Shown: in pieces, positions 1,085 through 36,064 of the stretch
Layout: each line of letters starts with the position of its first letter
Position numbering within the stretch: position 1 is the first letter of the stretch
Virus record (IMG/VR): IMGVR_UViG_3300031772_000017
Reading direction: 5' to 3' (one strand)
Length of the DNA stretch: 64,000 bases
From: an uncultured virus (IMG/VR IMGVR_UViG_3300031772_000017)
Taxonomy: Duplodnaviria > Heunggongvirae > Uroviricota > Caudoviricetes
The notes under the pieces: generated by a model
Told to the model about the DNA's origin: nothing
The model's database searches: none
The model's input: only the letters and a program-made list of their open reading frames with translations
Program-made: the position numbers and the translations under genes

Positions 1085-1321
1085 TCAAATTCCATTAGAT
1101 TCGACAGGCGTATTTTCAGCCTGATTTTTCTTCTCCTTCCAGGTCGCACACTCAGGATAACTTGACTTCCACACCCACCGACTCAACGCTCCCTCTCCTG
1201 CGAGAGTCACAAACGAGGGGAGTAGAGTATCAGGGAATTCACAGAAACGATCTGGACTATTATCCTCACCATATCTAGGGATCACTACTCCCCAAGCGCA
1301 CGATCCACAGTTTTTCTTCAT
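1085..1321 (-). CDS. hypothetical protein (Cys-containing)
   Basis: 78-aa ORF packed between neighbours with a 4-bp start/stop overlap; CxxC near the N-terminus. Confidence 0.6.
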   Translation of the reverse strand: MKKNCGSCAWGVVIPRYGEDNSPDRFCEFPDTLLPSFVTLAGEGALSRWVWKSSYPECATWKEKKNQAENTPVESNGI

Positions 1322-2817: not shown

Positions 2818-2838
2818 GTATCTCCTGGTTAGTGTGCT

Positions 2839-12398: not shown

Positions 12399-12495
12399 AC
12401 TAAAGTTCTCCTTTGTTGATAAAACTGTGGGGAACCACAAATAGACAATTTCTTATGTTCTGCGAAACGTACTTCAGGCTTCTTGTGGGTGAAAC

Positions 12496-23300: not shown

Positions 23301-24673
23301 TACACATGTGGATAATTCTGCATTTTGGATTCTTCCAAGGATTTCTCCTTCTTCTCAACGCGAACTTTCGACCACAGGTGCATGGGGATTCCTTCGGGGT
23401 GCGAGTGGCTGCCCACGCTGACAGTTTTCTGCATGGCTTCGGACCTGTCCTTAGCTTCTACTTCGTGTTTGTTGCCTAAGTGATCCGTAACATTCCAAAC
23501 ATGCTCTGAAACAAACTGTGCGTTTTCGTGTTGCTTAATCCTTTGATCGCTCCATCCCATTTTCTTGAGATGTCTGCGGGATTCCTCTTTGTCCATCCCA
23601 CCCATCACGCCCACCATAGCATCGGGCATTCTAAGGGTTTTCTTGGCAATCTGTGTCTGGTGATAATCGAATACGTTTTTTCCTTCTCCTAGCATCGCGT
23701 CCTCCACTTTCTCTGGTAAAAATCCTTGTCTATTCTCAGGGCTGTGAGGAAATAATCTCTTCAACCATTTGCTCTTATTGGTGTCAGGGTGATGCTCCTT
23801 CTTCCCGTCCTTCTCCGCTCTCTTTACTGGGGCAGTTTCCTTGCTCTCATCCTCTTTTTCCGTGATGTGGTGTTTCTTTGCAAATGCTAGTGTGGCCGCT
23901 TTACGTGAGTTGAAAAGTTCATCATAACTTGCTGTATGCTCCGGCTCTGTCACCTTCGTCACTGGCACTTCTTTAGCAGCAGTTCTTTTCACCCCCAAAT
24001 GAAGCGTCATCTGACGGGTTTCCTTCAACTGTTCCTCTTGGTGTCTCTTATCTACTTCAGCTTTCGCCCGTTCATATCCCAAATGAGGACCCGGTCCTTT
24101 TCCTATCGTCGCACATTTTACTGCCGCAGTTCCTTGATTGCGATATACTTCAAAGTGTCCTTTAGGGTGTGAACGAACAGTATAATTACCTTTTTCATAA
24201 AGTATATTCTCTGTGATAGATTCTTCCTTCAACTGATCCTCTTTAGACGCATCCGGCACAGTCAACTTCACAGACACGGCTTTGCTACCATGTCTCTTCT
24301 CGATCTTCTTATGAGCCTCAGACTCGGATTTTGCAGTCACATATTGACCCTGGTGACTACCCCCCATGTGATAGAAGTAGGATTCTTCGTCTAATTTTCC
24401 AGGATGAATGTCCTTAATATGCTGATTTACGCGAGCGATTTCTTCCGGCGACAACGTGGGATTATTGAACTGAACATGGTGAGGAGACACGACATGGTTA
24501 TAGCGAATAGGAGTGACTTTCGTACCATGCAGGACATCGTGATTACCATGAAAGGAGTGCGGAACGACATACGTTTTTCCGTTAATCGTACCCGTATAAT
24601 GTACGTCCGTTTTCGTGGCGCGTTGAAACTTCGGTACAAATTCTTCGTTACGCATTTGCTTAAAAGACTTCAT
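20372..24673 (-). CDS. 1433-aa modular His/Lys-rich protein with repeated EQLDE linkers, candidate head-packaged polyprotein
   Basis: Uninterrupted ORF; AGGAG RBS; start MKSFKQMRNEE; eight EQ(L/I)(D/N)E motifs plus many LxE sites between dissimilar modules. Confidence 0.85.
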   Translation of the reverse strand: MKSFKQMRNEEFVPKFQRATKTDVHYTGTINGKTYVVPHSFHGNHDVLHGTKVTPIRYNHVVSPHHVQFNNPTLSPEEIARVNQHIKDIHPGKLDEESYFYHMGGSHQGQYVTAKSESEAHKKIEKRHGSKAVSVKLTVPDASKEDQLKEESITENILYEKGNYTVRSHPKGHFEVYRNQGTAAVKCATIGKGPGPHLGYERAKAEVDKRHQEEQLKETRQMTLHLGVKRTAAKEVPVTKVTEPEHTASYDELFNSRKAATLAFAKKHHITEKEDESKETAPVKRAEKDGKKEHHPDTNKSKWLKRLFPHSPENRQGFLPEKVEDAMLGEGKNVFDYHQTQIAKKTLRMPDAMVGVMGGMDKEESRRHLKKMGWSDQRIKQHENAQFVSEHVWNVTDHLGNKHEVEAKDRSEAMQKTVSVGSHSHPEGIPMHLWSKVRVEKKEKSLEESKMQNYPHVYDVHLHGKKIDTLRTATHLDPTEYKKMLVQAHDYHPEITVTKKPTLMSEAVKSVLMNEKSLLQEKTLTPAESEKKEDIVHGMKKSIKSFKSHYGERAKNVMYATATARAKELSESRKIVVHHVYDEQKRVAHSIHATAADAKETKKQLELGGAQKGRYTINKYLRKLEENYKYDNMMYATATARAKKLAESKYNYETAMTSRLPAHLTDDPKGEKELEQGHLQHCGKCGRVRVFTKGSMTCPVCGTKKVTEEVEQIDELSKNTLGSYVRGAARNKDLQVGDKVHLGLGQKGGAGHEGTVHKIEGSQVHVNVGKGEVFGGNRIVVGTRKHVTVREGSEQLDELSKATLGSYVRGAARNKDLLMVKSGNMRMVGNDKEAEKYQEKSFKRTKGIRHAVEKLEESEQLDETVEYKSGHLLHPDDQRHVLNAYVHRYTKEHVPQWAEKPMPNGQSHKPHHETDADWLKHTKFAVKKNGRLHAGATHAQSTPSLPLTEAEQLDETFMGTYKRNESMNRHTANIVHLAKHFGTEADKSEAKFYADELKKHGHNKHHEASYRLHQKLWPLATAAHHYSEEVEQLNELKKSTLRNYLGKAAYDLRQQERVGHDAIEAERLKILQGSSRSARYGGRAKRAFHKGDKRIEGIHRAAGKLEEERKPYDAYDFAVGAKLSHHVDDNTHFHMNKEHGVYHIKGFKQGKHFWDTARTHGEAMKKFSAHKKGVSEEVEQLDEGDHKFINAASSRKSIADAEKALKDNPGMWSGPKAGFKGLITVHKKHLAKLQEAEQLDEISLGLAHKVHDARIERGDEYQRQAVSGPHHNQAQAKMKQEYAKADKVGGFITRKHNRLDAVGPEGRRGTAYAPTYKFHEEAEQLDEMTIGAGSHKVIKAFLNKQSASSKKLSTDGKTLHGNWLGGSGIAHHEGGKVHLNDLGGRTAIQVHRAIKKHLTYGSGSNVPHYDTELHEAHSETYNTIRRVLGEKKG
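20693..22543. repeat. dispersed in-frame 15-bp repeat TTCGTCGAGTTGTTC (encodes EQLDE on the minus strand)
   Basis: Identical copies at 20693, 20951, 21809, 22085 and 22280; variants at 21125, 21569 and 22529. All spacings (258, 174, 444, 240, 276, 195, 249) are multiples of 3. Confidence 0.9.
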
Positions 24674-24681
24674 GACTCTCC

Positions 24682-26445
24682 TTATTTGATATCTGACTTA
24701 AATTTCTTCAACGTTTTCTTAGGTCCGGCAGTCGCCTTTCCATTATTCGTCGTGTCCTGTGTTTCTGAAGGGCTGCCTCCGAGAATAGGCGCTCCACCTT
24801 CCATGCTATCCACGACTGGCTCACTCTCCGCAAGCAAGCGTGATCGGAAGAGTCGGAAGTCAATGGGACCATGAGGAAGCGAAGCATCTGTATCAAACAG
24901 TTGCTCAAAATCCTCATTGAGCTTCTTCTTTGCGGACTTCTTCTCGTCCTTCTTCTCAGGAAGCGGCTTCAATGCTTTCTCTTTTTCAATCAACCGATCA
25001 TGCACAGTCAAGTGACTGACACGACCAGCTTTTCCATAACGTCCCTTACCATAATACTGCAATCCAAGCTTCTGTGCGTCTTCCTTCGCTTGCGAATCGG
25101 CTGGTGGAGGAGCAACTTTTGCTTGTTGTTTCTTGTTCCCCACAGGGGCTTTTGCAATCTTGCTCAAGTGCTTATGAATCCAGATCGCGGCATTCTCCGA
25201 TTTCGGAGGTGTCTGGGTGAACTTCTTCACCGTCTTGTGCAAGTCGTCTAATTCTGCTGTTTTCTGTCCTGCAACGTCAGGGTCCGCATTCTGTCTCAAG
25301 TCCTCATCATTATTGAATTCGTGATAGTGTTCTCCACCGAATTCCTTTGCGAGCTTCACGCGAGAATCCTGTGCTTTGCGCCACTTTTCTGCACGAAGCT
25401 TCTCAGGAATGACACGTCCACCCCTTTGTCCTCGTTCAACGTTACGATTGCGGCTCACATTGTCGGAAGCGTCCACGAATACCATCTTACTGTCGTAACC
25501 CAACGCTTCCAGCTTATCTTTGATCTTCTTAATATGTGCGTGATCTGCGGAAGTACTGTTAATAATCAATCCGTTACGTCCATGAATCGCTAAGCGTTGG
25601 CGTAAATCCTGAAGGGACTTTGCTTTCTGACGATGTACATTGCGTCGTTCCTGTTCACTTTCCGGCATCTTCTTGTCAAGATGTTCTTTCGTCGTCAAGT
25701 GATCCAATGCTGTATCAGAGTTGATCTCCGTCAATCCATGTCCGTCAAGAGCTTTCTTGAGGACAATATCCTTACCAGAACCTGGGGCTCCTGCAAGGAA
25801 CACCGCTTTGAAAATTCCTGCATCATTGACGTGTTCTGTGAGCAATTCTTCTTCCTTAATTGGTTTTAATTTTTTGATTAAGGCGTCAATCTGTTTTCGT
25901 GTTTCTTTTTGAGCCGGAGAATTAGGGAACTGTCTTAACGCTTTATTCTCCAATTTAGACAATTCTAGTGTACGCCATGAACTTTTCCACGGCTGTCCTT
26001 TCAAAGAGTATTCTTTTTTTTGGAAAAGAGACTCTGCAAAAGTTTCCGCAACATTTTTTCTAAAGGAGTTGGGATATTCTTTCGTTGCCGCCAATGCTTC
26101 AAGTACATTAGCATGGATTATGATAGCGGGAATTGTTGACTCTGCACTAAGATTCAGTAAAGCTAAGAATCTGTGCTGTCCATCTATGATGTAGTGATCC
26201 TGGGACACCAAAATCGGTTCGTCGAGAGCATCGCTTTGTGGTCCCATGAGGTTTCTGATTTTAGACTCGTTGAAGTCCCCCTGAGTAAGAGAGAGGGAGT
26301 CCACCGGAATCTCTGCATAAGTGGAATCAATGTTCTTCTTAAGCCTAAGCCAATGGAGAAAATCGGGGATATCAGAGGATGTGACTTGAGGTAGAGACGA
26401 GCGTTCGATGTTTAGCCCGTTTTGTGGTAAATACAGTGAATTCAT
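24682..26445 (-). CDS. ParB/Srx-like domain fused to a zeta-toxin-like P-loop kinase and C-terminal modules
   Basis: PILVSQDHYIIDGQHR (ParB-like); FKAVFLAGAPGSGKD, EINSD, RNRNVERGQRGGRVIPE (zeta/AAA_33 kinase-like). Confidence 0.8.
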   Translation of the reverse strand: MNSLYLPQNGLNIERSSLPQVTSSDIPDFLHWLRLKKNIDSTYAEIPVDSLSLTQGDFNESKIRNLMGPQSDALDEPILVSQDHYIIDGQHRFLALLNLSAESTIPAIIIHANVLEALAATKEYPNSFRKNVAETFAESLFQKKEYSLKGQPWKSSWRTLELSKLENKALRQFPNSPAQKETRKQIDALIKKLKPIKEEELLTEHVNDAGIFKAVFLAGAPGSGKDIVLKKALDGHGLTEINSDTALDHLTTKEHLDKKMPESEQERRNVHRQKAKSLQDLRQRLAIHGRNGLIINSTSADHAHIKKIKDKLEALGYDSKMVFVDASDNVSRNRNVERGQRGGRVIPEKLRAEKWRKAQDSRVKLAKEFGGEHYHEFNNDEDLRQNADPDVAGQKTAELDDLHKTVKKFTQTPPKSENAAIWIHKHLSKIAKAPVGNKKQQAKVAPPPADSQAKEDAQKLGLQYYGKGRYGKAGRVSHLTVHDRLIEKEKALKPLPEKKDEKKSAKKKLNEDFEQLFDTDASLPHGPIDFRLFRSRLLAESEPVVDSMEGGAPILGGSPSETQDTTNNGKATAGPKKTLKKFKSDIK

Positions 26446-26498: not shown

Positions 26499-27245
26499 TT
26501 ACAGCGGCTTTTGGCAACGGACCCAAATCCACTGGGGGTGTAAGTCATGACACGGTTCAGTGAAGATGTGATCGAATCCCACAAACCCATTATCTTCGAT
26601 GTCCTTCTTGAGGTCTGCGACGTTCTCCACACGGACATCTGGGTTGTCGCTCGCATCAAATCCATGGAAGTAATCAACTGAATGAGTGTGTCCGGGTCCA
26701 AATCCCATCTGAAAACAGAAGAACCCCCCCGGCTTGAGGATTCTGAGAAATTCCTTATATAAGTCCAGTCGCCATTCTCGGCACGAAATGTGCTGCATAC
26801 AAATGACGGAGAAGACAACATCATAAGTGTCATCGGCGACCATAGGCAAGGAATGTCCGTCTGTCAGATACAAATTGGGCACAGGAATGCCTGCGCTCCC
26901 CAAGTTCAGGGGAACTTTTGAGAGAATCCCAGGTGAACGATCTGCCCCGTCGATACGGGCAAAGTAATTCTTGAACTTAATCATGTTGCGACCTGGTCCG
27001 CAACCATACTCAAGAGCGAGCTTATTCTGCATGATGGGGGTGCCGCGGAATAAGAGTTCTTCGTTCTTGTCTGCGTTGTGAGCGTCGTACCATCCCACAA
27101 CAGGCTCCCGATTCTCCAATGACCATCTTGCTGCCTCACGTTCCAGAAGGTTCTGGAAATGATCCCCCGTTTCGGGTACTACAGGAGTCGCACTCACACT
27201 CTGCGTTTCTGTGTTGTATACGAATAACGACATCTTCTCGTCCAT
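26499..27245 (-). CDS. class I SAM-dependent methyltransferase
   Basis: LEYGCGPGR, GAD, YDVVFSVICMQHI, RILKPGG. Confidence 0.88.
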   Translation of the reverse strand: MDEKMSLFVYNTETQSVSATPVVPETGDHFQNLLEREAARWSLENREPVVGWYDAHNADKNEELLFRGTPIMQNKLALEYGCGPGRNMIKFKNYFARIDGADRSPGILSKVPLNLGSAGIPVPNLYLTDGHSLPMVADDTYDVVFSVICMQHISCREWRLDLYKEFLRILKPGGFFCFQMGFGPGHTHSVDYFHGFDASDNPDVRVENVADLKKDIEDNGFVGFDHIFTEPCHDLHPQWIWVRCQKPL

Positions 27246-27248
27246 AAT

Positions 27249-27860
27249 CTAGTCCCTCCAATACGCAATATCGATTTCGGAATTGTCCTCATGCACATAA
27301 TCTACACGCTGCTTGAATCCCGCACCTGCTAGGAACGTGGACATTGACGCGAACGTGTTGTCCACATCAGTTATATAGACAGGCACTTGATACGTGACTT
27401 CGCAACGTCCAGACTTCACATTCTGAATCCAATCTCCCAAGCTCTTGAGTGCGAGCAAGTCATTACCCTGGCAGTCCGTCCACAGAAAATCGATATGATC
27501 GATCCCGTACAGTTCCAACAACTTTGCGAAGTTGATCGTATGGACTACGATCTTTCCAGTCATGCCACGCTGATACTGCCAATGCTTTTTGAGAGCGGTC
27601 TGAAGCAAGTCGGGGTGCAGAGGATAGAGGCTATTGATCCCTCGTTCGTGATCCATGATGTGAAACTCTTTGATCGCATCAGTCGTATCGACGGCAAACG
27701 GCCAGAGCGTCACGCGAGGATCATCTTTGAATCGCTGCACCAACTTCGCAAAGAGGAACGGGTCAGGTTCCGCTGCATATAGTTTATCGGGATTGTGCGC
27801 GCCCAAGAGTTTTGCTGTATCATCTCCATTGTTCGCTCCGATTTCTACCACAATTTTCAT
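27249..27860 (-). CDS. FkbM-family methyltransferase
   Basis: VEIGANNG, AAEPDP, IDFLWTDCQGNDL. Confidence 0.85.
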   Translation of the reverse strand: MKIVVEIGANNGDDTAKLLGAHNPDKLYAAEPDPFLFAKLVQRFKDDPRVTLWPFAVDTTDAIKEFHIMDHERGINSLYPLHPDLLQTALKKHWQYQRGMTGKIVVHTINFAKLLELYGIDHIDFLWTDCQGNDLLALKSLGDWIQNVKSGRCEVTYQVPVYITDVDNTFASMSTFLAGAGFKQRVDYVHEDNSEIDIAYWRD

Positions 27861-27961
27861 AATATCTCCTAATCGTTCCGCGTTTGGTTGATTGCTTCAG
27901 CACACAGTCGAGTTAATTCCTCGGTGTCGTGCAGCAAGAAGAATCTCAGCGTTGAGGTCCA

Positions 27962-28504
27962 TCACATTCCCGGTTTCCAAAAAGTGATATCAGGAGTATA
28001 GCTCTTGTTCACTGTATAATCCCATGTGAAAGTGAATCCATGATCCAACAACCATCCGGCTACGTTCGATTTCAAATCCTGGTAAATAGCAATTCGTCCT
28101 CGTTCCACGTCCTTAAAACGCTCCGCTAAACTCTCAAGACAATTCTCTTCACAGAATGGAGCATCAATGCGGAGATAGTCAATCTTCTCAATCCCATACA
28201 GAGACATAAACGTATCGAGTCGCATCGTCCACGTCAATCGAAAGCTTTCGGGTTTATCCGTTCGGAAGAAGGGATTCACAAGAGTACTTTGTCCATTGGG
28301 ATATTTGAACAATGGTTCTTGATTATCCCCCAGGTCGACCGCAAACGGAAGCAGCGTGAGTCGAGGATATGATCGTGACTTTATCTGCAAGTCTCGAAAC
28401 TTCTCAACATCAGGTTCAAACGCATAGACATTCGCCTCTGCATTCGCAAGAAAATGAAACGTCTCAATCCCTTCATGCGCCCCGACTTCAACAATCGTAC
28501 TCAT
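27962..28504 (-). CDS. FkbM-family methyltransferase (divergent paralog)
   Basis: VEVGAHEG, YAFEPD, RLDTFM..IDYLRIDA. Confidence 0.8.
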   Translation of the reverse strand: MSTIVEVGAHEGIETFHFLANAEANVYAFEPDVEKFRDLQIKSRSYPRLTLLPFAVDLGDNQEPLFKYPNGQSTLVNPFFRTDKPESFRLTWTMRLDTFMSLYGIEKIDYLRIDAPFCEENCLESLAERFKDVERGRIAIYQDLKSNVAGWLLDHGFTFTWDYTVNKSYTPDITFWKPGM

Positions 28505-29154
28505 GTGTCCCTCTTAATGATCCAATACCTCCGCTGTCCCTGTCGGAAATATCCACTGTTCTTTTCTTCCCAATCATAGTAATGGGCGCCTCCATTAGGG
28601 GGAATATTCAATTCAGGTACATCATAGCGATTCCATGTTGCGCCCAACGATTCAACACAATTCTGGAAGTTGTTTGCCGACATCACTGTACCGATACGAT
28701 TCACTGCATGATCGTATTGATCCATCTCATGTTTCTTCTGCTCATATGTAGGATCGATCAAATCAATGATTTCCGTTTCAAGACATAGTATGGGGGCTAA
28801 CTTCAAACAACACGCTAAATCCTGCTTCCAGTTATCGAGGTGATAGAGCAATCCCCAATGAACGATTAAATCAAAGGGCCCCGGCACGGTCCACTCCTTA
28901 TCCTGATCCACTAGATAGGCTTCAAACCCATCCTCTTTCATGAAGTCCACGAAGAATTGTCGTCCATCTGTAAAGACAGCTTCAGCCCCTAATTTTGCAA
29001 GCAATCGTCCGTTGTTCCCATGCCCACAACCCACGTCAAGGATTCGTTTCCCTGGAAACCAATCTGCTCCCAATACTTGCACAAGTACATTGACCCGTGC
29101 AGCGTTCCATTGATCGCAACTCTCATGTTGAAAATAATCATGCTTCGTCGTCAT
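28501..29154 (-). CDS. class I SAM-dependent methyltransferase
   Basis: ILDVGCGHG, FDLIVHWGLLYHL; GGAG RBS before MTTKHDY. Confidence 0.85.
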   Translation of the reverse strand: MTTKHDYFQHESCDQWNAARVNVLVQVLGADWFPGKRILDVGCGHGNNGRLLAKLGAEAVFTDGRQFFVDFMKEDGFEAYLVDQDKEWTVPGPFDLIVHWGLLYHLDNWKQDLACCLKLAPILCLETEIIDLIDPTYEQKKHEMDQYDHAVNRIGTVMSANNFQNCVESLGATWNRYDVPELNIPPNGGAHYYDWEEKNSGYFRQGQRRYWIIKRDT

Positions 29155-29155
29155 C

Positions 29156-29962
29156 TTAAACTCCATCGTATGCCGTGATATTGTATTTGGTTGTCGACCA
29201 AGGGTACCAATCTATCTCTGGAAAACTGGGGGTGTATGTCGCAACTTCTGGCCCATTGTTATTCAGCGCATGCCCCCACTTCTTCTGATAGTACGCTTGA
29301 GCACGAAGCAACGTCTTGTTTCTGTCGCGTCCATCTTCTGGTTGAATCCGTTCCATGTGCCAGTGGACGTTTTCATAGTTCGGGTCACACGCTTTGCTGT
29401 TCAGTTCTGTGCGAATCGCCTTCTGGATACCAATGGGATTCATGGTGAATCCCCAGTCATGCGTATCTTCAATACTCATTCTCATCTTGTCGTATCCCGA
29501 ATGAAAGACTCGCTTCATGAAATCGGCATCCCCGCAATAGGGAGAACAGAATCGCTCATCCCAATACCCCGACTTTCTTAACACATCCAACGTGATATAG
29601 TAGAACTGATCTCCCGCTGGACCCCAAATAAAATCGTAGTGCTTGCGCCATTCTCTCAACCATGTCGCAAACTCAGGATGAATGTATGTATCATCTTGAA
29701 TACAGGCTATGTTGTTAGAATGTTGCAAGGCTTTGAGAAACACACTATTCCAACTTCGCGCATTCCATAAGTTCGATTCGTCTGTGTTCAAACTATTGAC
29801 AACAACTCGATCCACATAACTTTCTGACTCAAGGGAAAGAGATACGAGAGAATGGTTCGACATGACATTGGAACGAATGCCCTGTCGTCCTAATTCTGTC
29901 ACTAGACGATTGAGTGCTACAGGACGATTGAACGTCAGAATCCAGGTTGATAGATTATCCAT
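29156..29962 (-). CDS. GT-A fold glycosyltransferase-like protein
   Basis: Start MDNLSTWILTFNRP; ARSWN, IQDDT, GYWDERF, GDADF. Confidence 0.7.
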   Translation of the reverse strand: MDNLSTWILTFNRPVALNRLVTELGRQGIRSNVMSNHSLVSLSLESESYVDRVVVNSLNTDESNLWNARSWNSVFLKALQHSNNIACIQDDTYIHPEFATWLREWRKHYDFIWGPAGDQFYYITLDVLRKSGYWDERFCSPYCGDADFMKRVFHSGYDKMRMSIEDTHDWGFTMNPIGIQKAIRTELNSKACDPNYENVHWHMERIQPEDGRDRNKTLLRAQAYYQKKWGHALNNNGPEVATYTPSFPEIDWYPWSTTKYNITAYDGV

Positions 29963-31157
29963 TGATGAGCCCCCATTCCTTGATTGCTTCGTGATACTCT
30001 TTCCCGTATGTATGATCGATGGCCTGACGCATCGCGTGACACCCCGCAAGCGTTCCCCCTGGATGCCCGTGCAGTGCGCCTCCAACATTTGCCATATAAT
30101 CATTACCAACATTCTTTGTGACATGATTGACAAGTCCTGGGTGCATTCCACACGACAACGCGGGAAGCACATTATGGGAGTGCAGCAAGTCCATGACACT
30201 TTTCAATTCCTTGGTATCTTCTTGCATGTATCCACCAAACATCCCCGCATGGATAGAGTCAACTCCCGCAAGGGCAGCAAGTTGACACATCGCATACCAT
30301 GACATACCAAACGCATTTTTGCTATGGGTGATAACTTTATCCCCGCTCTTTTGATAGTGCAGGAACAATGGAAGGTTCAGTCGGCGAATGGAATGATACG
30401 CACCCAATCCACTCCAGAAATTGATATGCACCCCATTCGCACCTTCTTCAGCAAGGAACAACGCTCGCTTCTCAATCACATGTGGGTCTCCGTTAATCGA
30501 GAAGCAATAGACAACTTTACGACCACACTTATGTAAATAGCTTGTGATGATCGGCACTCGTTCTTCCAAGCTACAGAATGCGGGATTGGAAAGGATTTCA
30601 TCTTCCTTGATGAAGTCCACGCCACCATCCACCAACTCTTTCACCATGTCTAGCAATTGATTCGGGCGTAACCCAGTCTTGGGCTTGATGATTCCTCCGA
30701 AGATGGGCTTATCGTATTGCCCGGTGAGCGCACGGATACCACGGATACCGTACTTAGGTTGCTGGAAATGTTTACGCACCGATTCAGGAATTTGTAATGA
30801 CTCAATGCGACAATGAGTGATATGGGCAATGTCGGCTTGCCCACCAAGAATTTGGCACATGAGATGGGCAATACCATCCCCCTCCCAATCGGTGTTGATG
30901 ATCGGGAAAGCAATTTTTATCGTTGGTCGTTCTTCTCGGTATTCTGAATCGAAGTCGGTATGTAATACCAGACACGCATGGTTCTCAAACAGTTCATCCG
31001 TTTCCCAGTGATTGCGGATATTGGGGTTGCCCATGCTCTGCCCGATAGCCAAATCAAATGCTGACTTCTTGACGCTGTGAGTGCTATCAAGTTGATAGGA
31101 AACAACTAGATACTTCTCAGGGTCAATAGAACTCTCATCACGAAAAATATTAAACAT
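29955..31157 (-). CDS. RuBisCO-like protein (form IV, RLP)
   Basis: GGIIKPKTGL, GGVDFIKEDE, PALSCGMHPG, NVGGALHGHPGG..AG..AMRQA; several carboxylase residues are substituted. Confidence 0.9.
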   Translation of the reverse strand: MFNIFRDESSIDPEKYLVVSYQLDSTHSVKKSAFDLAIGQSMGNPNIRNHWETDELFENHACLVLHTDFDSEYREERPTIKIAFPIINTDWEGDGIAHLMCQILGGQADIAHITHCRIESLQIPESVRKHFQQPKYGIRGIRALTGQYDKPIFGGIIKPKTGLRPNQLLDMVKELVDGGVDFIKEDEILSNPAFCSLEERVPIITSYLHKCGRKVVYCFSINGDPHVIEKRALFLAEEGANGVHINFWSGLGAYHSIRRLNLPLFLHYQKSGDKVITHSKNAFGMSWYAMCQLAALAGVDSIHAGMFGGYMQEDTKELKSVMDLLHSHNVLPALSCGMHPGLVNHVTKNVGNDYMANVGGALHGHPGGTLAGCHAMRQAIDHTYGKEYHEAIKEWGLING

Positions 31158-31196
31158 TGCAAATTTCCTTTCCGCTTTTCTTATAGATCACATAAC

Positions 31197-31517
31197 TCAT
31201 ACCAAATACTTATCTCCTATCACAGAAGGCACTTTCACCACCACGATGGTACTCTTTTCATGCACGATGCAATCACTCACTTCATCTTTCTCGAAAATGA
31301 AAATATCCCCAGGCACTAAGAGTCGTCCGTTACACGTCATGGACCCACTCACAAACACATTCATCTCTTCAACCAAGTGATGATAATGTAATGGTATATA
31401 GGCACCCTTCTCATGGATCATCACAGAAATTTCAAACTCAGTCGTGCGAATCAGTGAAGGCTCAAAGTCACCGATGATCCATCCATTCTTAAATTCTTCC
31501 AACCGACGCATTCTCAT
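31197..31517 (-). CDS. cupin-fold protein
   Basis: GWIIGDFEPS, HYHH..EEMNVFVSG, GDIF, VVVKVPS. Confidence 0.8.
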   Translation of the reverse strand: MRMRRLEEFKNGWIIGDFEPSLIRTTEFEISVMIHEKGAYIPLHYHHLVEEMNVFVSGSMTCNGRLLVPGDIFIFEKDEVSDCIVHEKSTIVVVKVPSVIGDKYLV

Positions 31518-32887
31518 GTATGATGCTCCCTCAAATAATGATTCAAGTCCTCTGGTGTTCCAAGGGACCACATTTTCTGAATGTTCTTCACACGAATCTT
31601 CTTCCCATCAGCAATCGCTTCATTGTAGACAGGACACACATAGAATTCATTATTGACACGAATGTTCTTCGTCATCATTTGTTCTGCGTACTTCACAAAG
31701 TCTGATCCATGCGTCCAGTAATAGAGTCCCACTGTCGCATCATCGGAAATGACTTTCTTCTCCGCAACTTCACTGACAAATCCTTGCTCATCCACTTTCG
31801 CAAACGAATATTGAGGATGGACGGACTTAAACGTGATAATGCCTCCATCGATCCCTGCTGCGGAGAACGCATATAAGCATTCATTGGAGTTCCATTCTAC
31901 CGATTGATCGGAGTTCGCAATCAACATGGGCTGCTCGTTGTCGATGAGTGACTTCGCAAGGAGTACCGTACACGCGGCTCCCTCTGTCACTCCATCTGCT
32001 TGCACGATATCGCACCCAGGAGCGACCATGTTCAGCATGTACTTGAGTTGATACTTCTCATAGTGCGCTTTCTGCACGATGAATATATAGTGCGCATCAA
32101 TATTGAGACTTTCCTTAACAACTTGGATCATTGGTCGTCCGTTGACTTCAATCAGGGGCTTCGGGAATGTATATCCCGCTGTAGCAAAACGCGACCCATG
32201 ACCCGCCATTGGTACAATAACGTTCAACTTCTTGTCACGCCAGGGAATCGTCTTATGAACAATCCCCCTGAAGTAGTCAGCAATAGTCTCACCGAGGGCA
32301 TGGTTGACTTCAGAGGGGTCACAAACGGGAATCAAGTGTGCGCCCGAGGCTATCGCTCCCTCACGTCCTATATGCGAATCCTCCACAACGACTGTGTTAT
32401 TCACGTCCGTCTTGAGGGCAATCATGCACTTCCAGTACATCTCAGGAAACGGTTTAGGGTGTCGTACATCTTCATTGGACACAAAATAGTCTACTTGTTC
32501 CATCACTCCTAGACGACTGAGGGCCATCACTAATGTCTGTCGAATACTATTGGACGCAACGGCAATCTGAATTTGTTCCATTTTGAGAATTTCAAAAATA
32601 GAACAAAGATCACCGTCACGCTGAATATTCTCATAAAGTTCTACAGTGTAGCGTTGTTTGGATTTCCATATCTGATCGTAGAACGTCGCAGGTAATCCCT
32701 TTTCTTTCGTGAGAAGCAACAGTTTCTTCGTTGTCGGTAATCCATCGTACTTGGACAAATGCTCATCCCAGGAAATGATGAACTTATGACTCACATCCGA
32801 CAACGCTTGATTCAGAGCTTTGAAGTGAAATTCTCTTGAGTGAATAAGTACACCGTCCAAGTCGAAAATGACCAATTTATTTCGCAT
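31514..32887 (-). CDS. HAD phosphatase/phosphomutase fused to a sugar-phosphate nucleotidyltransferase
   Basis: N-terminal FDLDGVL, ASNS, KPFPE, VEDS; C-terminal VPMAGHGSRF..PKPLI, TEGAACT, IANSDQ, EKKVIS, NEFYVCPVYN, LGTPEDL. Confidence 0.9.
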   Translation of the reverse strand: MRNKLVIFDLDGVLIHSREFHFKALNQALSDVSHKFIISWDEHLSKYDGLPTTKKLLLLTKEKGLPATFYDQIWKSKQRYTVELYENIQRDGDLCSIFEILKMEQIQIAVASNSIRQTLVMALSRLGVMEQVDYFVSNEDVRHPKPFPEMYWKCMIALKTDVNNTVVVEDSHIGREGAIASGAHLIPVCDPSEVNHALGETIADYFRGIVHKTIPWRDKKLNVIVPMAGHGSRFATAGYTFPKPLIEVNGRPMIQVVKESLNIDAHYIFIVQKAHYEKYQLKYMLNMVAPGCDIVQADGVTEGAACTVLLAKSLIDNEQPMLIANSDQSVEWNSNECLYAFSAAGIDGGIITFKSVHPQYSFAKVDEQGFVSEVAEKKVISDDATVGLYYWTHGSDFVKYAEQMMTKNIRVNNEFYVCPVYNEAIADGKKIRVKNIQKMWSLGTPEDLNHYLREHHT

Positions 32888-33494
32888 CTCTATGTACCTT
32901 ATTATGTCTCACTACGGACAACGGGTTGCACACAATCTCTGCCTTGTCACGTACACGAAGCGACCATTCAACATCTTCTGGTGAACCTGGGGGCATGGCT
33001 TCGTTGATGGGATTGTCTCTGAGGAAGTCTCGCTTCACAAGAAAATACCCACCACTGATATACTGATACTTAGTCTGACTCCAATCCTCATAGTCGAGCG
33101 AATGGTACCGCGGGAGTGTTGGATGATCCCACAGCACCCAGTCAGTGAAATGTCGTTTGCCGTTGAGCAGATATTGAGGATTTGAACAGATACCCCATTT
33201 ATCCCCGAACCTATAATATCCTTCATACCACTCAGGATCAAACACATAATAATCATGGAGCAACACCAGGTTTTCGTATTGCGCCAACTTCGCCACAAGA
33301 TTTTTCTTCTTCGGTAACCACCCATCCGATAACACATGCTGTACTAGAGGATTAACACCCGAATGATCGTTCGCGTATGATCCCGCCACTAGAATTTCAA
33401 ATTTTGGAATCTTCAGTGCATTGATCGACTCAATCACGGCATTTAATCGTGGGATATCATCATAAATTGTCATGATCCCGAATGTCATTTGCAT
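32877..33494 (-). CDS. GT2-like glycosyltransferase
   Basis: TFGIMT, KKKNL, LLHDYY, ISGGYFLVK, EDVEWS. Confidence 0.75.
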   Translation of the reverse strand: MQMTFGIMTIYDDIPRLNAVIESINALKIPKFEILVAGSYANDHSGVNPLVQHVLSDGWLPKKKNLVAKLAQYENLVLLHDYYVFDPEWYEGYYRFGDKWGICSNPQYLLNGKRHFTDWVLWDHPTLPRYHSLDYEDWSQTKYQYISGGYFLVKRDFLRDNPINEAMPPGSPEDVEWSLRVRDKAEIVCNPLSVVRHNKVHRDAK

Positions 33495-34516
33495 GGTTGC
33501 AGTATCCCCAAAATATCACTCACGGTATGCTTGACGAGGTGCGTCGATAACACGTATCTCTGTGCTTCTAATAAATGCGTGCTAGTCACTCCTCGAAACA
33601 ACTGTAGATAGTGTTGTAGTTCTGTGGGAGTCTTGTATGTTGCTCCATATTCTCGCATCAGTTCCGCTCCCGCAATCTCTCTTGCTACCCACGGAGTCAT
33701 GTTCAACATCGCTTCCAGAAGCACTAATCCAAATCCTTCTGAGTAACTGTTGAGTATATAGAGGTCTGTTTCCAGTAACGCATCCAACATATCTTGTCGT
33801 TCCGTAAAGAGAAACGATCTGATATGTTCGTTGCTCGCGGGCATGATCTCGAAACGATTATCATATCCCGTAAGGACCAATGTCGTATCATCACGTTTCG
33901 CTTTCTGAAATACTCCAACCAGTTCATCGAACGCTTTATTTGGCCAGAATCCACCGGATGAGAGGAACATATAGGGGGTTGTGATATTGTACTTCTCACG
34001 GAATCCAGGTCGTCCAACTGACGTGTGATTGTTAATCCCATGACGGACTCGGACAGCACGATCATTCGAATTGTAAGATTGCACATAGCGCCAATCTGCA
34101 AGTGTCGAGCATCCAATATACATCACACGATGCAATGCGCTTACACACGTCTGAGAGTGTGAGGGAAGAATCAATAAGTAGAGAACAGGTCCTCCCCATT
34201 TTTCTGCATTATTCAAGACGTAATTCTGGACAGCAACATCTCCGCCATGCACGACAATCAAATCCCATAGCTCCCTCAAAATCTCTGGATTGGATGAGAC
34301 ATGGATACCATTATAATCACCTTTATGTTCTCCTGCAAACACAGCGACTCGGTGACCGCGCGCCTTCATTTCCTCTGCCATGTCCCGCACATAGTTTTCG
34401 GAGCCCCCCTGGAATGGAGCGTAGCGATGCACAACAAACAAAATTCTATACGCCCTGAACACCTGTTGCACAGGAACTTTCGTCGATTCTGGCTCAGGAG
34501 CATACGATGTGGTCAT
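33485..34516 (-). CDS. GT4-like (GT-B) glycosyltransferase
   Basis: HRYAPFQGGSE, GGFWPNK, SEGFGLVLLEAM. Confidence 0.85.
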   Translation of the reverse strand: MTTSYAPEPESTKVPVQQVFRAYRILFVVHRYAPFQGGSENYVRDMAEEMKARGHRVAVFAGEHKGDYNGIHVSSNPEILRELWDLIVVHGGDVAVQNYVLNNAEKWGGPVLYLLILPSHSQTCVSALHRVMYIGCSTLADWRYVQSYNSNDRAVRVRHGINNHTSVGRPGFREKYNITTPYMFLSSGGFWPNKAFDELVGVFQKAKRDDTTLVLTGYDNRFEIMPASNEHIRSFLFTERQDMLDALLETDLYILNSYSEGFGLVLLEAMLNMTPWVAREIAGAELMREYGATYKTPTELQHYLQLFRGVTSTHLLEAQRYVLSTHLVKHTVSDILGILQPCK

Positions 34517-35397
34517 GAATACTTCCTTTCAAATGCCTCTTTAATTTCAGGGACCCTATCATATTGGTGGACAATCGCATACGGAATTCCTGCCGGGGTT
34601 TCTACTTGCACTTTCTTTTCATTGAAGGATGGACGGACAAGCGGAAGGAATTGAAGATAGCGATGCAATTTTCGTGGGTCCATCGTCGTGCCTAATTGTG
34701 AAGCCCAAGGTGTATCAATATCCGTGATTTCTGTTGTGTTTCGATATGCGGGGGTTGAGAGAATAAGATTGAGAGCCGCTTGGTCGGGTCCTCCACCACC
34801 AGGAACATGCTGTGTCGCATTCACAGACAGAAGCCAAATTGTCTTACAGAGTCCCACAAACATATCCAATCGTCCTGCAAGAACACCGCAATTGATAATC
34901 TCATTTCCCTTGTGCGCTTCATACATGATCTCTCCAAATGACTGCTTGAGATTATTCTTACCCCACACTTCATGTTCATACTTAATCGACTCAGAGGATA
35001 CGATCAATTCATTCTGTCCCTGTCGCTTTTCAAGATACTCTGAGGGGTTGGTCTGAAAGACCACATCACGAACATCGGTCGCAATGACGTATCTGATTTC
35101 CTGATTGATCGTAGTTTTCTGAAGTTGTGGAAGGAAGAGGAATAAATGAAGGAAACGGTCAACTACAATGTTGAAATTCTCATTCGGGTACGTGCACTTA
35201 CCCTGAGAATCTTTTTGAAATCCAATGACAATATAATTGCGGTCCGTGAGTTCTTTCACTGTTGCTGCGTCAAGATTGTACGCAATGACAACCTTCTTGC
35301 CCGTGAACCCACAACGATCAAGGCTGTTCGCCCAATACTTGATTTGATCCCACTTGTACCCTGTTACGGCTCCTACGACACAATCACACGATTCCAT
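34513..35397 (-). CDS. GT-A fold glycosyltransferase-like protein
   Basis: TDVRDVVFQTNP, NCGV, DQAALN, VHQYDR; GAGG RBS before MESCDC. Confidence 0.7.
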   Translation of the reverse strand: MESCDCVVGAVTGYKWDQIKYWANSLDRCGFTGKKVVIAYNLDAATVKELTDRNYIVIGFQKDSQGKCTYPNENFNIVVDRFLHLFLFLPQLQKTTINQEIRYVIATDVRDVVFQTNPSEYLEKRQGQNELIVSSESIKYEHEVWGKNNLKQSFGEIMYEAHKGNEIINCGVLAGRLDMFVGLCKTIWLLSVNATQHVPGGGGPDQAALNLILSTPAYRNTTEITDIDTPWASQLGTTMDPRKLHRYLQFLPLVRPSFNEKKVQVETPAGIPYAIVHQYDRVPEIKEAFERKYS

Positions 35398-35425
35398 AAT
35401 ATCCTCATGATTAAAGTAGCTTTCT

Positions 35426-35454
35426 AGTATAGTGGAATTAGAAGGAGGTGTCAA
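35426..35454 (-). promoter_or_regulatory. sigma70-like promoter heading the glycosylation/RLP operon
   Basis: TTGACA-17 nt-TATACT. Confidence 0.8.
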
Positions 35455-35458
35455 TAAC

Positions 35459-35466
35459 TATTTATG
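35459..35466 (-). promoter_or_regulatory. putative late promoter (CATAAATA) heading the glycosylation/RLP operon
   Basis: Intergenic match to the T4 late consensus with one mismatch. Confidence 0.55.
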
Positions 35467-35470
35467 CACT

Positions 35471-36064
35471 CTAGATATAGTGTAAGTATCCTGACACAAT
35501 ATACTTGGAACCGCTAATCGGCTTACAACCCCGATGCACATGTGTCCACAGAGGGGGGAACATGAGCACTCGTCCTTGAACTGCGGGAATCACAAATGAA
35601 GGTTTGCTTACATCCAATCCAAAGGTCGTTTCCCCTCCCACTTCTACCGTATTCAAATACCAAAGAAATGCAAGAAATCGTCTTGCAGTCCCATAACTTC
35701 CAACGTCTGTATGTGTACCAAATTCATCCTTATCATTTGGCTCATACTTCTTCATGCGGAACTGTTCATATCCAAACTGTTTCGGAAACTGCACCAGATA
35801 TTCGATATGGTGATTAGCCATATATGCTTTCCACAATGGATGTATCAGGTTCACCAACAATTCATGTTCATCATGCCAATGGAGGGAAATGTTGATCTCG
35901 GTAAATCGACGTGAGAGCCCCGCGGTTCCCAATGTGACTATTTGGTGATTTCCCTCATTCTCTTCAAACTTCCGAATCAATTTTTCACATAGCATTGAAG
36001 GTATCGCATCTTCATAGACCGTGGAAAAGGGTATGATGGATGAGTCTATGGAACTTTTTTTCAT
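35471..36064 (-). CDS. 2OG-Fe(II) oxygenase (prolyl-hydroxylase-like)
   Basis: HTD, FLWYLN, GGET, FPPLWTHVHRG, KYIVS. Confidence 0.88.
   Translation of the reverse strand: MKKSSIDSSIIPFSTVYEDAIPSMLCEKLIRKFEENEGNHQIVTLGTAGLSRRFTEINISLHWHDEHELLVNLIHPLWKAYMANHHIEYLVQFPKQFGYEQFRMKKYEPNDKDEFGTHTDVGSYGTARRFLAFLWYLNTVEVGGETTFGLDVSKPSFVIPAVQGRVLMFPPLWTHVHRGCKPISGSKYIVSGYLHYI

Follow-up and report, generated by a model that had tools for sequence, protein, structure and literature searches.

The locus studied here raises the question of what a RuBisCO-like protein (RLP) does among the glycan genes of a phage. The window, which is the whole 64,000-nucleotide stretch of uncultured-virus DNA that was analysed, comes from a distant T4-like phage; it contains genes for gp43, gp41, UvsX and the clamp loader. 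The ORF list of the window and Pfam bear out the predicted eleven-gene run on the minus strand (26499-35454), with each gene in its predicted place. A GT-A-like gene is followed by GT4, GT2-like, HAD plus nucleotidyltransferase (NTase), cupin, RLP and GT-A genes, and then by four methyltransferases (Table 1). By ORF coordinates, seven junctions overlap by 4-11 nt and the other three are gaps of 3, 39 and 101 nt; the run is therefore tightly coupled, as originally described. It is flanked by replication genes and by a ParB/GmrSD_N-like plus zeta-like kinase protein (Pfam).

Table 1. Features of the window; locus counts refer to the best 80 of 232 viral stretches with RLP relatives.
Feature	Coordinates	Strand	Evidence
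Putative GT-A-like transferase (weak assignment)	34513..35454	minus	PHROG glycosyltransferase 2e-4; PLOD-GT 0.012
GT4 (GT-B fold) glycosyltransferase	33485..34516	minus	PF00534 (Glycos_transf_1) 2.4e-13; PF13692 2.9e-12
205-aa protein, possibly GT2-like	32877..33494	minus	GT2-named language-model neighbour clusters, 0.97-0.98 (Atlas)
HAD-IA (beta-phosphoglucomutase-like) + sugar-phosphate NTase fusion	31514..32887	minus	HAD_2 6.6e-25, NTP_transferase 2e-8 (Pfam)
Small metal-type monocupin, 106 aa	31197..31517	minus	AF2 pLDDT 96.9; Foldseek; phrog_24762 6.6e-28
RLP, 400 aa	29955..31157	minus	PF00016 RuBisCO_large 1.6e-42
GT-A fold glycosyltransferase, 268 aa	29156..29962	minus	AF2 model pLDDT 79.5; Foldseek
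Class I SAM methyltransferase	28501..29166	minus	Methyltransf_23 1.2e-10; in 12/80 loci
FkbM-family methyltransferase	27962..28504	minus	PF05050 1.2e-6; TIGR01444 7.6e-9
FkbM-family methyltransferase	27249..27860	minus	PF05050 1.9e-10; TIGR01444 1.3e-15, 58.1 bits > cut-off 37.7
Class I SAM methyltransferase	26499..27245	minus	Methyltransf_11 3.4e-13; in 7/80 loci
Thymidylate-synthase-family gene	11619-12440		
NAMPT + ribose-phosphate pyrophosphokinase	1318-4016		

The best PDB match of the RLP is the RLP 3nwr (2e-46); the second is a form III enzyme (7.2e-40). All NCBIfam RuBisCO and RLP models score far under their own cut-offs: the two MtnW models reach 124 and 163 bits (cut-offs 514 and 409), OiaX 171 (700) and form III, the best model, 190 (497). 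Mapped on a form I enzyme, the protein keeps K175, K177, K201, D203, E204, S379, G381, G403 and G404; it carries the changes E60->G, T65->N, W66->gap, N123->G, H294->Q, R295->K and K334->Y. E60, N123, H294 and K334 are needed for carboxylation. Judged by these residues, the RLP is predicted to have retained metal binding and enolisation and to have lost carboxylation, which agrees with the original view that form IV RLPs do not fix CO2. The RLP family as a whole has Q269, Y310 and C336 as invariant residues; across 64 viral homologues, 111 positions are invariant in at least 98% of the sequences.

In a quick tree, 22 rows are cassette RLPs, and these form a single clade (SH-aLRT 100); OiaX-like alphaproteobacterial RLPs fall in another. 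Also outside the cassette clade are seven short alphaproteobacterial RLPs, each with a cupin directly downstream; from their context only, these are taken to be of the DeepYkr type. The phylogeny that had been proposed as a check, together with the failed MtnW models, sets the cassette RLPs apart from methionine-salvage enzymes.

In the HAD-NTase fusion, the HAD-IA domain occupies residues 1-~200 and the NTase residues ~217-457; the protein contains the motifs FDLDG, ASNS, HPKP, EDS and MAGHGSRF. It scores 87 bits against the NCBIfam beta-PGM family and does not reach the cut-off of 153. The NTase half is nearest to sugar-1-phosphate NTases (4evw, GlmU and mannose-1-P guanylyltransferase), with 4evw as its best PDB match (1.6e-15). 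The cupin more likely starts at M19 of a 124-aa ORF. Pfam gives no match for it; its top Foldseek matches are all monocupins, namely DddQ, the archaeal phosphomannose isomerase 7zvm, KdgF and putative sugar-phosphate isomerases. H44, H46 and E51 are invariant among 47 homologues. The cupin profile reaches the Cap5F cupin at E 0.4 only, and neither profile search nor Foldseek detects a sequence-level relation to RmlC or FdtA.

Linkage was assessed by tblastn with the window genes in the best 80 of 232 IMG/VR stretches with RLP relatives (54-100% identity), to which all viral counts in this text refer. The NTase half is found in 77 of these 80 loci and the cupin in 73; gene order is almost always NTase-cupin-RLP. 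In 65 of 79 loci the RLP has the cupin directly upstream, and in 61 the NTase is the next gene upstream. The NTase abuts the RLP in five complete viral loci without cupin. Of the 39 cellular loci, 36 have the NTase; in 34, its best match is within ~1.5 kb of the RLP. Their gene orders are RLP-NTase, RLP-cupin-NTase or RLP-NTase-cupin, and in locus L113 an NTase is directly upstream of the RLP (Pfam). Two fusions (P0121, 813 aa; P0122, 817 aa) join RLP, NTase and a C-terminal cupin in one chain; another (P0387, 667 aa) joins RLP and NTase. Since the cupin is absent from 30 of the 39 cellular loci and from the five complete viral loci, it is not essential. The conserved core is RLP plus NTase; the cupin joins it in most phages and in nine of the 39 cellular loci. 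The expected linkage of cupin and HAD-NTase is thus seen in part: NTase and cupin are linked to the RLP in phages and glycan loci, whereas few cellular loci have the cupin, and fusion of the HAD domain to the NTase is confined to the near clade, where 12 of the 80 loci have it in full length and one more has it cut by the end of the locus.

The cellular carriers include SAR11, DPANN archaea, Legionella, Azospirillum and others, within glycan gene sets. LicD adjoins the RLP in Legionella nautarum, and a GT2 is present in the Turneriella locus. SAR11 loci contain GT17, GT61, an RmlD-like gene and DUF4422; a nanoarchaeon locus contains a Wzx-type flippase, DegT, GT2, GDPD and GDP-mannose dehydratase. 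In the viral loci the context includes SDR dehydratases, GT2, GT11, FkbM and a WavE-like gene. The occurrence of the RLP beside or fused to a sugar-activating enzyme in phages, bacteria and archaea suggests a putative sugar-building role for this RLP family.

Glycan islands of cultured cyanophages hold homologues of the window NTase (30-39% identity). In phage Bellamy the NTase is fused to RpiB (PF02502 3.9e-32) and followed by a cupin of the same family as that of the window; in S-SKS1 it is fused to DHBP synthase (PF00926 5.4e-65). These fusions in cultured cyanophages are new here. RpiB and DHBP synthase both act on ribulose-5-phosphate via enediol chemistry; their presence as NTase partners suggests a pentulose-phosphate substrate. 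An RpiB domain is found neither in the window nor in any of 119 RLP loci (the 80 viral and 39 cellular loci, flanks 6-10 kb), and an RLP in none of 33 loci around Bellamy, S-SKS1, S-CAM9 and relatives (flanks 6-10 kb); a single RpiB lineage, with 30 loci of 80-100% identity, underlies this exclusivity, which holds for these flanks only. DHBP synthase does not simply take the place of the RLP, since both are present in loci L018 and L031. HAD-NTase fusions without any RLP occur in cultured cyanophages such as S-CAM9, S-PRM1 and B3; the NTase can therefore serve pathways of other kinds, and its step may precede that of the RLP.

It is reasonably probable that the RLP and NTase, usually with the metal cupin and here with the HAD domain, form a conserved module that supplies a glycan with a sugar, or a unit resembling one, in nucleotide-activated form. 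The metal site of the RLP (carbamate-Lys/Asp/Glu) and a Lys175-type base would enolise a phosphorylated keto-sugar, the likeliest being a pentulose phosphate of the pentose-phosphate pool, and yield an isomerised or epimerised keto-sugar phosphate without carboxylation. The cupin may be a metal-dependent isomerase for the next step. The HAD domain, as mutase or phosphatase, would move the phosphate to the position needed by the NTase, which by its family would couple the product to NMP. The unit could then be attached by the four lineage-specific glycosyltransferases; methylation of it or of its neighbours could fall to the four methyltransferases. The substrate, step order, product and acceptor proposed here are our reading of the genes present, their linkage and fusions, the residues of the RLP and its clade; the branched or keto NDP-sugar named in the original prediction is a guess.

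The opposite order is unlikely. In that case the (HAD-)NTase would first make an NDP-linked keto-sugar, and the RLP and cupin would modify this nucleotide-linked form, with the cupin in the part that RmlC/FdtA-type epimerases or ketoisomerases play in deoxysugar pathways. Tailoring of NDP-sugars is a classic cupin function, and the marginal match to Cap5F (E 0.4) points in the same direction, as do the cyanophage HAD-NTase fusions without RLP or cupin, in which the NTase must have its own substrate. The RLP keeps the glycines of the P1 phosphate site and has a remodelled P2 site, which would leave room for something bulky past one phosphate. However, all characterised RLPs act, to our knowledge, on free sugar phosphates; RpiB and DHBP synthase, to which the NTase is fused in cyanophages, also work on free phosphates, and the cupin has no detectable sequence relation to RmlC or FdtA. 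A role in methionine/MTA salvage is very improbable: the pair would be a DeepYkr RLP with its cupin methylsulfurylase, or MtnW with MtnD and MtnX, recycling SAM by-products of the methyltransferases. HAD, cupin and RLP together do recall MtnX, MtnD and MtnW, and the cluster contains four SAM-dependent methyltransferases; however, methyltransferases release SAH, not MTA. The MtnW scores, the fusion of the module to an NTase and its setting in glycan loci also argue against salvage, and MtnA, MtnB, MtnK and MtnP are absent from the 47 window ORFs scanned. An adjacent RLP and cupin pair is the hallmark of the MTA-isoprenoid shunt (PMC5893883), but the cassette RLPs are separate from the seven short alphaproteobacterial RLPs, and the cupins are unrelated: the window cupin profile finds none of the cupins beside those RLPs (scores <0; hhalign probability 0.05).

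The product could also be a donor for hypermodification of phage DNA (a sugar on a modified base) rather than for a protein or cell-surface glycan. T4-type phages glycosylate DNA; the T4-like genes, the position of the cluster next to replication genes and the thymidylate-synthase-family gene are consistent with this. Such an acceptor is nonetheless improbable, as cellular RLP-NTase pairs are found with surface-glycan genes (flippase, LicD, GT2, GT61), and FkbM methyltransferases and GT4/GT-A enzymes are what is usually seen in glycan loci rather than among T4 DNA glucosyltransferases. This alternative touches the acceptor only and is compatible with the main mechanism. It is extremely unlikely that the RLP is a working carboxylase, that is, a form III-like RuBisCO in nucleotide (AMP/NAD) salvage with the phage NAMPT and PRPP synthetase. 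Form III provides the best NCBIfam model and the second-best PDB match, and both salvage genes are in the window. That model score is far under its cut-off, however; the four carboxylation residues are replaced, with Q269 and Y310 invariant as replacements, and the RLP lies 25 kb from the NAD genes yet overlaps glycan genes.

The glycosyltransferases and methyltransferases are lineage-specific add-ons and not part of the proposed module, because they are common to only ~13-19 close loci; they are tied to its product by position only. Among the original glycosyltransferase calls, GT4 (Pfam; 13 of 80 loci) and the GT-A enzyme downstream of the RLP (AF2/Foldseek; 19 of 80) stand, and the other two are weaker. 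This GT-A gene most likely starts at the ATG at 29962, not at the GTG at 30199, and shares 8 nt at its start with the end of the RLP gene. Its best PDB matches (Foldseek) are SpsA, glycogenin, TarP and WrtF (E 2.6e-5, TM 0.4-0.48); D90 and D91 are invariant. The first gene of the run (18 of 80 loci) probably has its true start at M20, near 35397; the Atlas stores the protein from residue 20 onward, and its structural neighbours there are viral, some being parts of multi-domain glycosyltransferases. The 205-aa protein (16 of 80 loci) has no Pfam match even at E<=1, and its possible GT2 likeness is a lead from language-model neighbours alone.

An RLP in a virus is not new. Jaffe, Castelle, Dupont and Banfield (2019) described "form IV-like" RuBisCO-related proteins in phages (Myoviridae) and Beckwithbacteria, with ~80 phage RLPs, and called their function "unclear" (PMC6389311). 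Like those described here, these RLPs are found on IMG/VR phage contigs with T4-type genes, diverge strongly from other RLPs, have lost key catalytic residues and share a clade with a few cellular genomes. Going by these descriptions and not by sequence comparison, the cassette clade appears to be the "form IV-like" clade. The NTase and cupin linkage, the fusions and the glycan context are described here and not in the available text of that paper (PMC6389311).

The DeepYkr RLP of the MTA-isoprenoid shunt of Rhodospirillum rubrum and Rhodopseudomonas palustris is a 5-methylthioribulose-1-P 1,3-isomerase, and the adjacent cupin is a 1-methylthioxylulose-5-P methylsulfurylase (PMC5893883). Here too, RLP and small cupin are encoded side by side, and the window RLP may likewise be a non-carboxylating pentulose-phosphate isomerase; the RLP clade differs, the cupins are without detectable relation, and instead of a salvage pathway there is a glycan locus, with an NTase as partner. 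MtnW/YkrW (2,3-diketo-5-methylthiopentyl-1-phosphate enolase) shares the fold and the retained metal site, and enolises a phosphorylated keto compound, as the window RLP may do; it differs in its model scores, and no mtn genes are among the ORFs scanned. OiaX-related RLPs of D-apiose catabolism, reportedly described by Carter et al. 2018, are said to act on branched sugar-acid phosphates; unlike the window RLP, they are catabolic, without NTase partner, and in a separate clade, and the OiaX model fails.

Nucleotide-heptose type pathways use an isomerase, an anomeric kinase, a HAD phosphatase and an NTase. The proposed logic is the same here, with a sugar-phosphate isomerase feeding a PF00483-type NTase and a HAD handling phosphates; no kinase is assigned in the window, and the RLP would stand in place of RpiB or GmhA-type isomerases. 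The putative sister modules of Bellamy and S-SKS1 would follow this logic too, with NTase and cupin families shared with the window. A mini GDPD-like gene, absent from the window itself and outside every proposed scheme, is present in 61 of the best 80 of 232 viral loci.

RuBisCO-like proteins (RLPs) are the standard example of RuBisCO active-site reuse; to our knowledge, all functions assigned to them so far lie in salvage or catabolism. The window RLP is encoded in a cluster of eleven genes between a 2OG-Fe(II) oxygenase and a 587-aa zeta-kinase-like protein. The cluster also encodes a cupin and a sugar-phosphate nucleotidyltransferase (NTase), here fused to a HAD domain. Coordinates and family assignments confirm the eleven-gene run of the original prediction; two of its glycosyltransferase calls stand on thin evidence. 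By coordinates, seven of the ten junctions in the cluster are overlaps of 4-11 nt, and the remaining three are gaps of 3, 39 and 101 nt. At E<=1, Pfam gave no match for two stretches of the cluster or for several conserved neighbours in related loci.

Features of the window, with the genes of the glycan cluster in transcription order
Feature	Coordinates	Strand	Assignment or remark
NAMPT	1318-2817	-	NAD-salvage gene pair; 1.7e-192
Ribose-phosphate pyrophosphokinase	3219-4016	-	NAD-salvage gene pair; 1.7e-68
Strongly negative AT skew	18-26 kb
1433-aa protein	20372-24673	-	K-, E- and H-rich (His 7.5%)
587-aa protein	24682-26445	-	Weak N-terminal ParB/GmrSD_N-like stretch; Zeta_toxin/AAA_33 P-loop kinase domain (6.9e-12)
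Gene cluster	26499-35454	-	Eleven genes
Cluster gene 1		-	GT-A-like protein; weak evidence
Cluster gene 2		-	GT4
Cluster gene 3		-	GT2-like protein, 205 aa; lead only
Cluster gene 4		-	HAD-NTase
Cluster gene 5		-	Cupin
Cluster gene 6		-	RLP
Cluster gene 7		-	GT-A
Cluster gene 8		-	Methyltransf_23
Cluster gene 9		-	FkbM
Cluster gene 10		-	FkbM
Cluster gene 11		-	Methyltransf_11
Segment seen in metagenome runs	28500-33500
Stretch with no Pfam match	29156-29962
Stretch with no Pfam match	32877-33494
2OG-Fe(II) oxygenase	35471-36064	-	Between helicase and glycan cluster

The window has a T4-like gene set comprising a gp43-type DNA polymerase, a gp41-type helicase, UvsX, clamp loader and primase. 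It also encodes ribonucleotide reductase, a thymidylate-synthase-family gene, NAMPT and ribose-phosphate pyrophosphokinase. The minus strand carries almost all of the genes, and no tRNAs were found in the window. The polymerase shares only 46% identity with those of its best-matching cultured relatives, Synechococcus myoviruses, which marks the lineage as distant.

Linkage of the RLP to the NTase and the cupin is widespread in viruses. In IMG/VR, 232 stretches encode RLP relatives, of which the best 80 (54-100% identity) were analysed. When the window proteins were used as tblastn queries, the NTase half of the fusion (residues ~217-457) was found in 77 of these best 80 loci and the cupin in 73. 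Two of the three viral loci without NTase (L063 and L075, which also have no cupin) begin at or just before the RLP, and in five complete loci the NTase abuts the RLP with no cupin. After neighbouring genes had been re-clustered at 70% coverage, the gene directly upstream of the RLP was the cupin in 65 of 79 viral loci, and the second upstream was the NTase in 61.

The original prediction held that RLP, cupin and HAD-NTase together build an unusual NDP-sugar. This prediction is partly supported: the module and its glycan context were borne out and extend far beyond one phage, while the HAD, glycosyltransferase and methyltransferase genes proved to be lineage-specific. The HAD fusion is confined to the near clade (12 full-length copies and one cut by the locus end). 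Each remaining gene of the cluster (GT4, two GT-like proteins, GT-A and four methyltransferases) is limited to 7-19 loci, essentially viral loci L001-L013 and L016.

The same linkage is found in cells. The genome collection contained 39 cellular RLP loci at 35-60% identity. They belong to Pelagibacter and other SAR11 bacteria (one a complete chromosome), to Woese-, Pace-, Micr- and Nanoarchaeota, to Verrucomicrobia, Elusimicrobia, Balneola and a Sphingobacteriales MAG, and to Azospirillum oleiclasticum, Turneriella, three Legionella species, Tatlockia and a Francisellaceae SAG. Of the 39 loci, 36 have the NTase; the other three are contigs 1.6-3.7 kb long. The best NTase match is within ~1.5 kb of the RLP in 34 loci. 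The gene orders are RLP-NTase, RLP-cupin-NTase and RLP-NTase-cupin, and in one locus (L113) Pfam identifies a second NTase immediately upstream. Only nine of the 39 have a detectable cupin.

Glycan genes were also found in the six cellular neighbourhoods, out of 39, that were annotated with Pfam. LicD adjoins the RLP in Legionella nautarum, and a GT2 is found near it in Turneriella. The SAR11 neighbourhood contains GT17, GT61, an RmlD-like gene and DUF4422, and that of Pelagibacter a GT9, a CMP-sugar-type cytidylyltransferase and a separate HAD-NTase. The nanoarchaeal neighbourhood contains a Wzx-type flippase, a DegT aminotransferase, GT2, GDPD and GDP-mannose dehydratase.

Fusion proteins join the same partners. 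A search for long proteins returned two, of 813 and 817 aa, which consist of RLP, NTase and a C-terminal copy of the window-type cupin; P0387 (667 aa), one of the best 150 NTase-subfamily representatives, is an RLP-NTase fusion. Since the linkage is retained across changed gene orders, in two domains of life and in viruses, and is accompanied by fusion, there is strong evidence that RLP, NTase and cupin work in one pathway.

The NTase matches PF00483 with 34.5 bits (cut-off 21.2), has 4evw as its best structure (1.6e-15) and carries the NTP loop G-x-G-(S/T)-R as MAGHGSRF. The HAD belongs to HAD_2 (88.7 against a cut-off of 23.8) and has the DxD motif; assignment as a beta-phosphoglucomutase equivalog was rejected, as TIGR01990 gave 76.7 against a cut-off of 189.4. 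The cupin has the double-stranded beta-helix fold and the HxH...E metal motif of its superfamily. Profile and Foldseek comparison of the cupin with the PDB returned generic monocupins (quercetinase, PMI, KdgF, DddQ) and no specific enzyme.

The 400-aa RLP matches PF00016 at 1.6e-42 (146 bits against a cut-off of 30.1). Its closest solved structures are 3nwr, an RLP of no assigned function (2e-46), and form III enzymes. All curated RuBisCO and RLP models of NCBIfam are missed by a wide margin: form III scores 190 bits against a cut-off of 497, form I/large subunit 179 against 438, OiaX, the RLP of D-apiose catabolism, 171 against 700, and form II 120 against 489. The two models of MtnW, the methionine-salvage enolase, score 163 (162.8) bits against 409 (PRK09549) and 124 (123.8) against 514 (513.6) (TIGR03332).

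The active site was mapped by alignment to the form I enzyme from an Azospirillum genome, with residues given in spinach numbering. The RLP retains K175, K177, K201, D203, E204, S379, G381, G403 and G404. It carries replacements at E60 (G), T65 (N), W66 (gap), N123 (G), T173 (I), H294 (Q), R295 (K) and K334 (Y). The set needed for carboxylation is E60, N123, K175, K201, D203, E204, H294 and K334; this set is incomplete in the RLP, with E60, N123, H294 and K334 all changed. At 111 positions, at least 98% of the 64 distinct viral homologues have the same residue; these positions include the replacements Q269, Y310 and C336 as well as the IGQSxGNP motif. H303, which is equivalent to H327, is variable. 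The signature is also seen in SAR11, Legionella, nanoarchaeal and Turneriella proteins. The protein is a form IV RLP in the broad sense, with a RuBisCO fold in which the Lys/Asp/Glu of the metal site are kept and RuBP-specific residues are replaced. From these residues, it probably binds metal via a carbamylated lysine and abstracts a proton beside a carbonyl; on established RuBisCO chemistry, it is predicted to be unable to carboxylate RuBP.

None of the methionine-salvage genes mtnX, mtnB, mtnD, mtnA and mtnK was found among the 17 + 30 window ORFs scanned; the window HAD is beta-PGM-like and fused to the NTase. To place the RLP, 301 alphaproteobacterial genomes were sampled and their 30 RuBisCO-family ORFs sorted with NCBIfam. 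These comprise ten form I, four form II and one odd form I-like sequence, one Azospirillum member of the RLP cassette, seven OiaX-like RLPs (400-460 bits, under the cut-off) and seven short RLPs of 362-454 aa whose best model is MtnW (133-180 bits). A quick maximum-likelihood tree was built from 24 of the 30 ORFs (six of the ten form I; the odd form I-like sequence omitted) and 22 viral, cellular and fused cassette sequences. In this tree of 46 rows, which has SH-aLRT support only, an arbitrary root and no form III, YkrW or Photo references, the cassette RLPs form one clade (SH-aLRT 100, branch length 1.4). The other four groups likewise form one clade each, and the cassette clade is separate from both the OiaX-like and the seven short RLPs.

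In all seven short RLPs, a conserved cupin of ~150 aa lies directly downstream. The MTA-isoprenoid shunt known from R. rubrum and R. palustris, with its methylsulfurylase cupin, has the same arrangement (PMC5893883). The seven short RLPs were therefore taken, from context and not from their names, to be of the DeepYkr type. The cassette differs from the DeepYkr shunt in its RLP clade, and the cupins of the two have no detectable homology: the window cupin profile scored below 0 against the short-RLP cupins in hmmsearch, and hhalign gave a probability of 0.05. Two outcomes had been named as counting against the original prediction, namely grouping of the RLP with methionine-salvage enzymes and lack of consistent linkage to these genes; the tree, the cupins and the linkage speak against both.

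Several Synechococcus myoviruses in culture encode partners of the RLP. The HAD-NTase fusion is found at 59-64% identity in S-CAM9, S-PRM1, B3, B23, DSL-LC03 and S-8S55; in S-CAM9, the one neighbourhood read, it lies within a glycan island, and neither an RLP nor a cupin is annotated in its vicinity. Cupin matches in cultured phages were found only in Bellamy and SynMITS9220M01. In these two, a homologous NTase is fused to an RpiB/LacAB isomerase (3.9e-32), an arrangement seen in one lineage (30 loci, 80-100% identity, limited flanks). Next after the fusion gene comes a cupin of the window family (40% identity), and a PfkB-like kinase and a HAD come before it. The NTase of S-SKS1 has a full DHBP synthase domain (5.4e-65) as its fusion partner, and a HAD and a transaldolase-family gene lie beside it. 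No RpiB domain was found in the 119 RLP loci or the window, and no RLP in 33 loci of these sister-module kinds. Two viral RLP loci (L018 and L031) also contain, in the same glycan locus and ~2.5 kb downstream of the RLP, a homologue of DHBP synthase with 58% identity to the S-SKS1 domain.

RpiB and DHBP synthase both take ribulose-5-phosphate via enediol intermediates, and RLPs perform the same kind of chemistry on pentulose phosphates. On this basis, we infer that RpiB, DHBP synthase and RLP are alternative front ends which supply a single NTase family from the pentose-phosphate pool. The RLP would isomerise or epimerise a pentulose phosphate, the cupin would be a second isomerase, and the HAD would act as a mutase or phosphatase delivering the phosphate to the NTase. 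The opposite order, in which the NTase acts before RLP and cupin work on the NDP-sugar, is a less likely alternative. The reading with RLP at the front can be extended to an anabolic branch of the RuBisCO fold, a tentative proposal to which we give a low probability: RLP and cupin would make an unusual sugar phosphate from a pentulose phosphate, and the NTase would convert it to a new nucleotide-linked donor. The pentulose phosphate might come from the pentose-phosphate pool or from a SAM by-product, and the product, a keto, deoxy or branched sugar phosphate, might chemically resemble DXP or DHBP. The donor would serve surface or virion glycans across SAR11, DPANN archaea, Legionella and T4-like phages, and the NTase fusions to RpiB, DHBP synthase and RLP would be alternative starts at ribulose-5-phosphate.

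Phage RLPs have been described before. In Jaffe et al. 2019 (PMC6389311), ~80 non-redundant form IV-related sequences are reported on phage contigs from IMG/VR and groundwater. Some of these are from Myoviridae, group with two Beckwithbacteria sequences and form an outgroup to other RLPs; their function is called unclear. Compared by description, the window RLP resembles these 'form IV-like' proteins in being on a myovirus-type contig and apart from the named groups. New RuBisCO branches in ocean data were already present in the 2007 GOS paper. An RLP in a phage is not new; what appears from sequence to be new is a functional variant of this known kind of enzyme that is linked to NTase and cupin. 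No paper joining RLPs with NTase and cupin, with nucleotide sugars or with glycosyltransferases and viruses was found in a search of open-access papers. Neither megablast with the cluster nor tblastn with the RLP gave a match in the cultured-phage collection; consequently, no cultured phage there has the RLP.

Members of the clade occur on hundreds of viral contigs, and the database search matched thousands of protein clusters. The clade is tied to the NTase in glycan loci by position and by fusion. If the link is functional, the RuBisCO/RLP family gains a biosynthetic role, and abundant ocean and freshwater organisms (SAR11, their phages and DPANN archaea) may make an activated sugar not known before. 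Phage 'rbcL-like' auxiliary genes, which are easily mis-scored as carbon fixation, would also be explained. The module is small, and its three or four soluble enzymes can be directly reconstituted.

The NTase subfamily has further fusions. The best 120 fused long forms are all HAD-NTase-sized. Of the best 150 representatives, 28 atypical ones were scanned; none of these 28 has an RpiB or DHBP synthase partner, and such partners were seen only in cultured cyanophages. Six database proteins are fusions to GT61 (three), GT2 (one) or SnoaL-like domains (two) (P0280, P0289, P0310, P0330, P0347, P0365), which ties the NTase physically to glycosyl transfer. In P0247, an 804-aa HAD-NTase homologue, the NTase domain is split by an intein with a LAGLIDADG endonuclease.

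Several neighbours of the cluster are shared with related viral loci. The 2OG-Fe(II) oxygenase is in the same place in five of 80. Zeta-type kinases phosphorylate UDP-sugars; the 587-aa protein, which comes straight after the cluster and keeps this position in seven of 80 loci, could therefore belong to the pathway. The 1433-aa protein, encoded within the AT-skewed region, is present in six of 80 loci and has no Pfam or PHROG family. It was dropped as a candidate Ser/Thr-rich glycan acceptor because of its K/E/H-rich composition.

At least half of the sampled words of the segment 28500-33500 were found in 16 runs labelled sediment metagenome (16 coded studies, 2019); no RNA run was listed for this segment.

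A mini GDPD-like protein of ~150 aa is encoded in 61 of the 80 viral RLP loci (L004, L008-L012 and 55 others) and is absent from the window. Its invariant residues are H6, R7, G8, E18, E35, D37, H49 and H71 (HRG, E, D, GH), and by profile it resembles the N-terminal region of glycerophosphodiester phosphodiesterases (E 1.1e-5). In the nearest relatives of the window, the gene separates the last methyltransferase from the zeta-like gene; the window has only 53 nt at this place. In one viral subclade (L032 and L034-L041), genes for an APH/fructosamine-kinase-like kinase, a 3-dehydroquinate-synthase-like sugar-phosphate cyclase, an SDR and a radical SAM enzyme come after the RLP; this gene set suggests a cyclitol-type branch.
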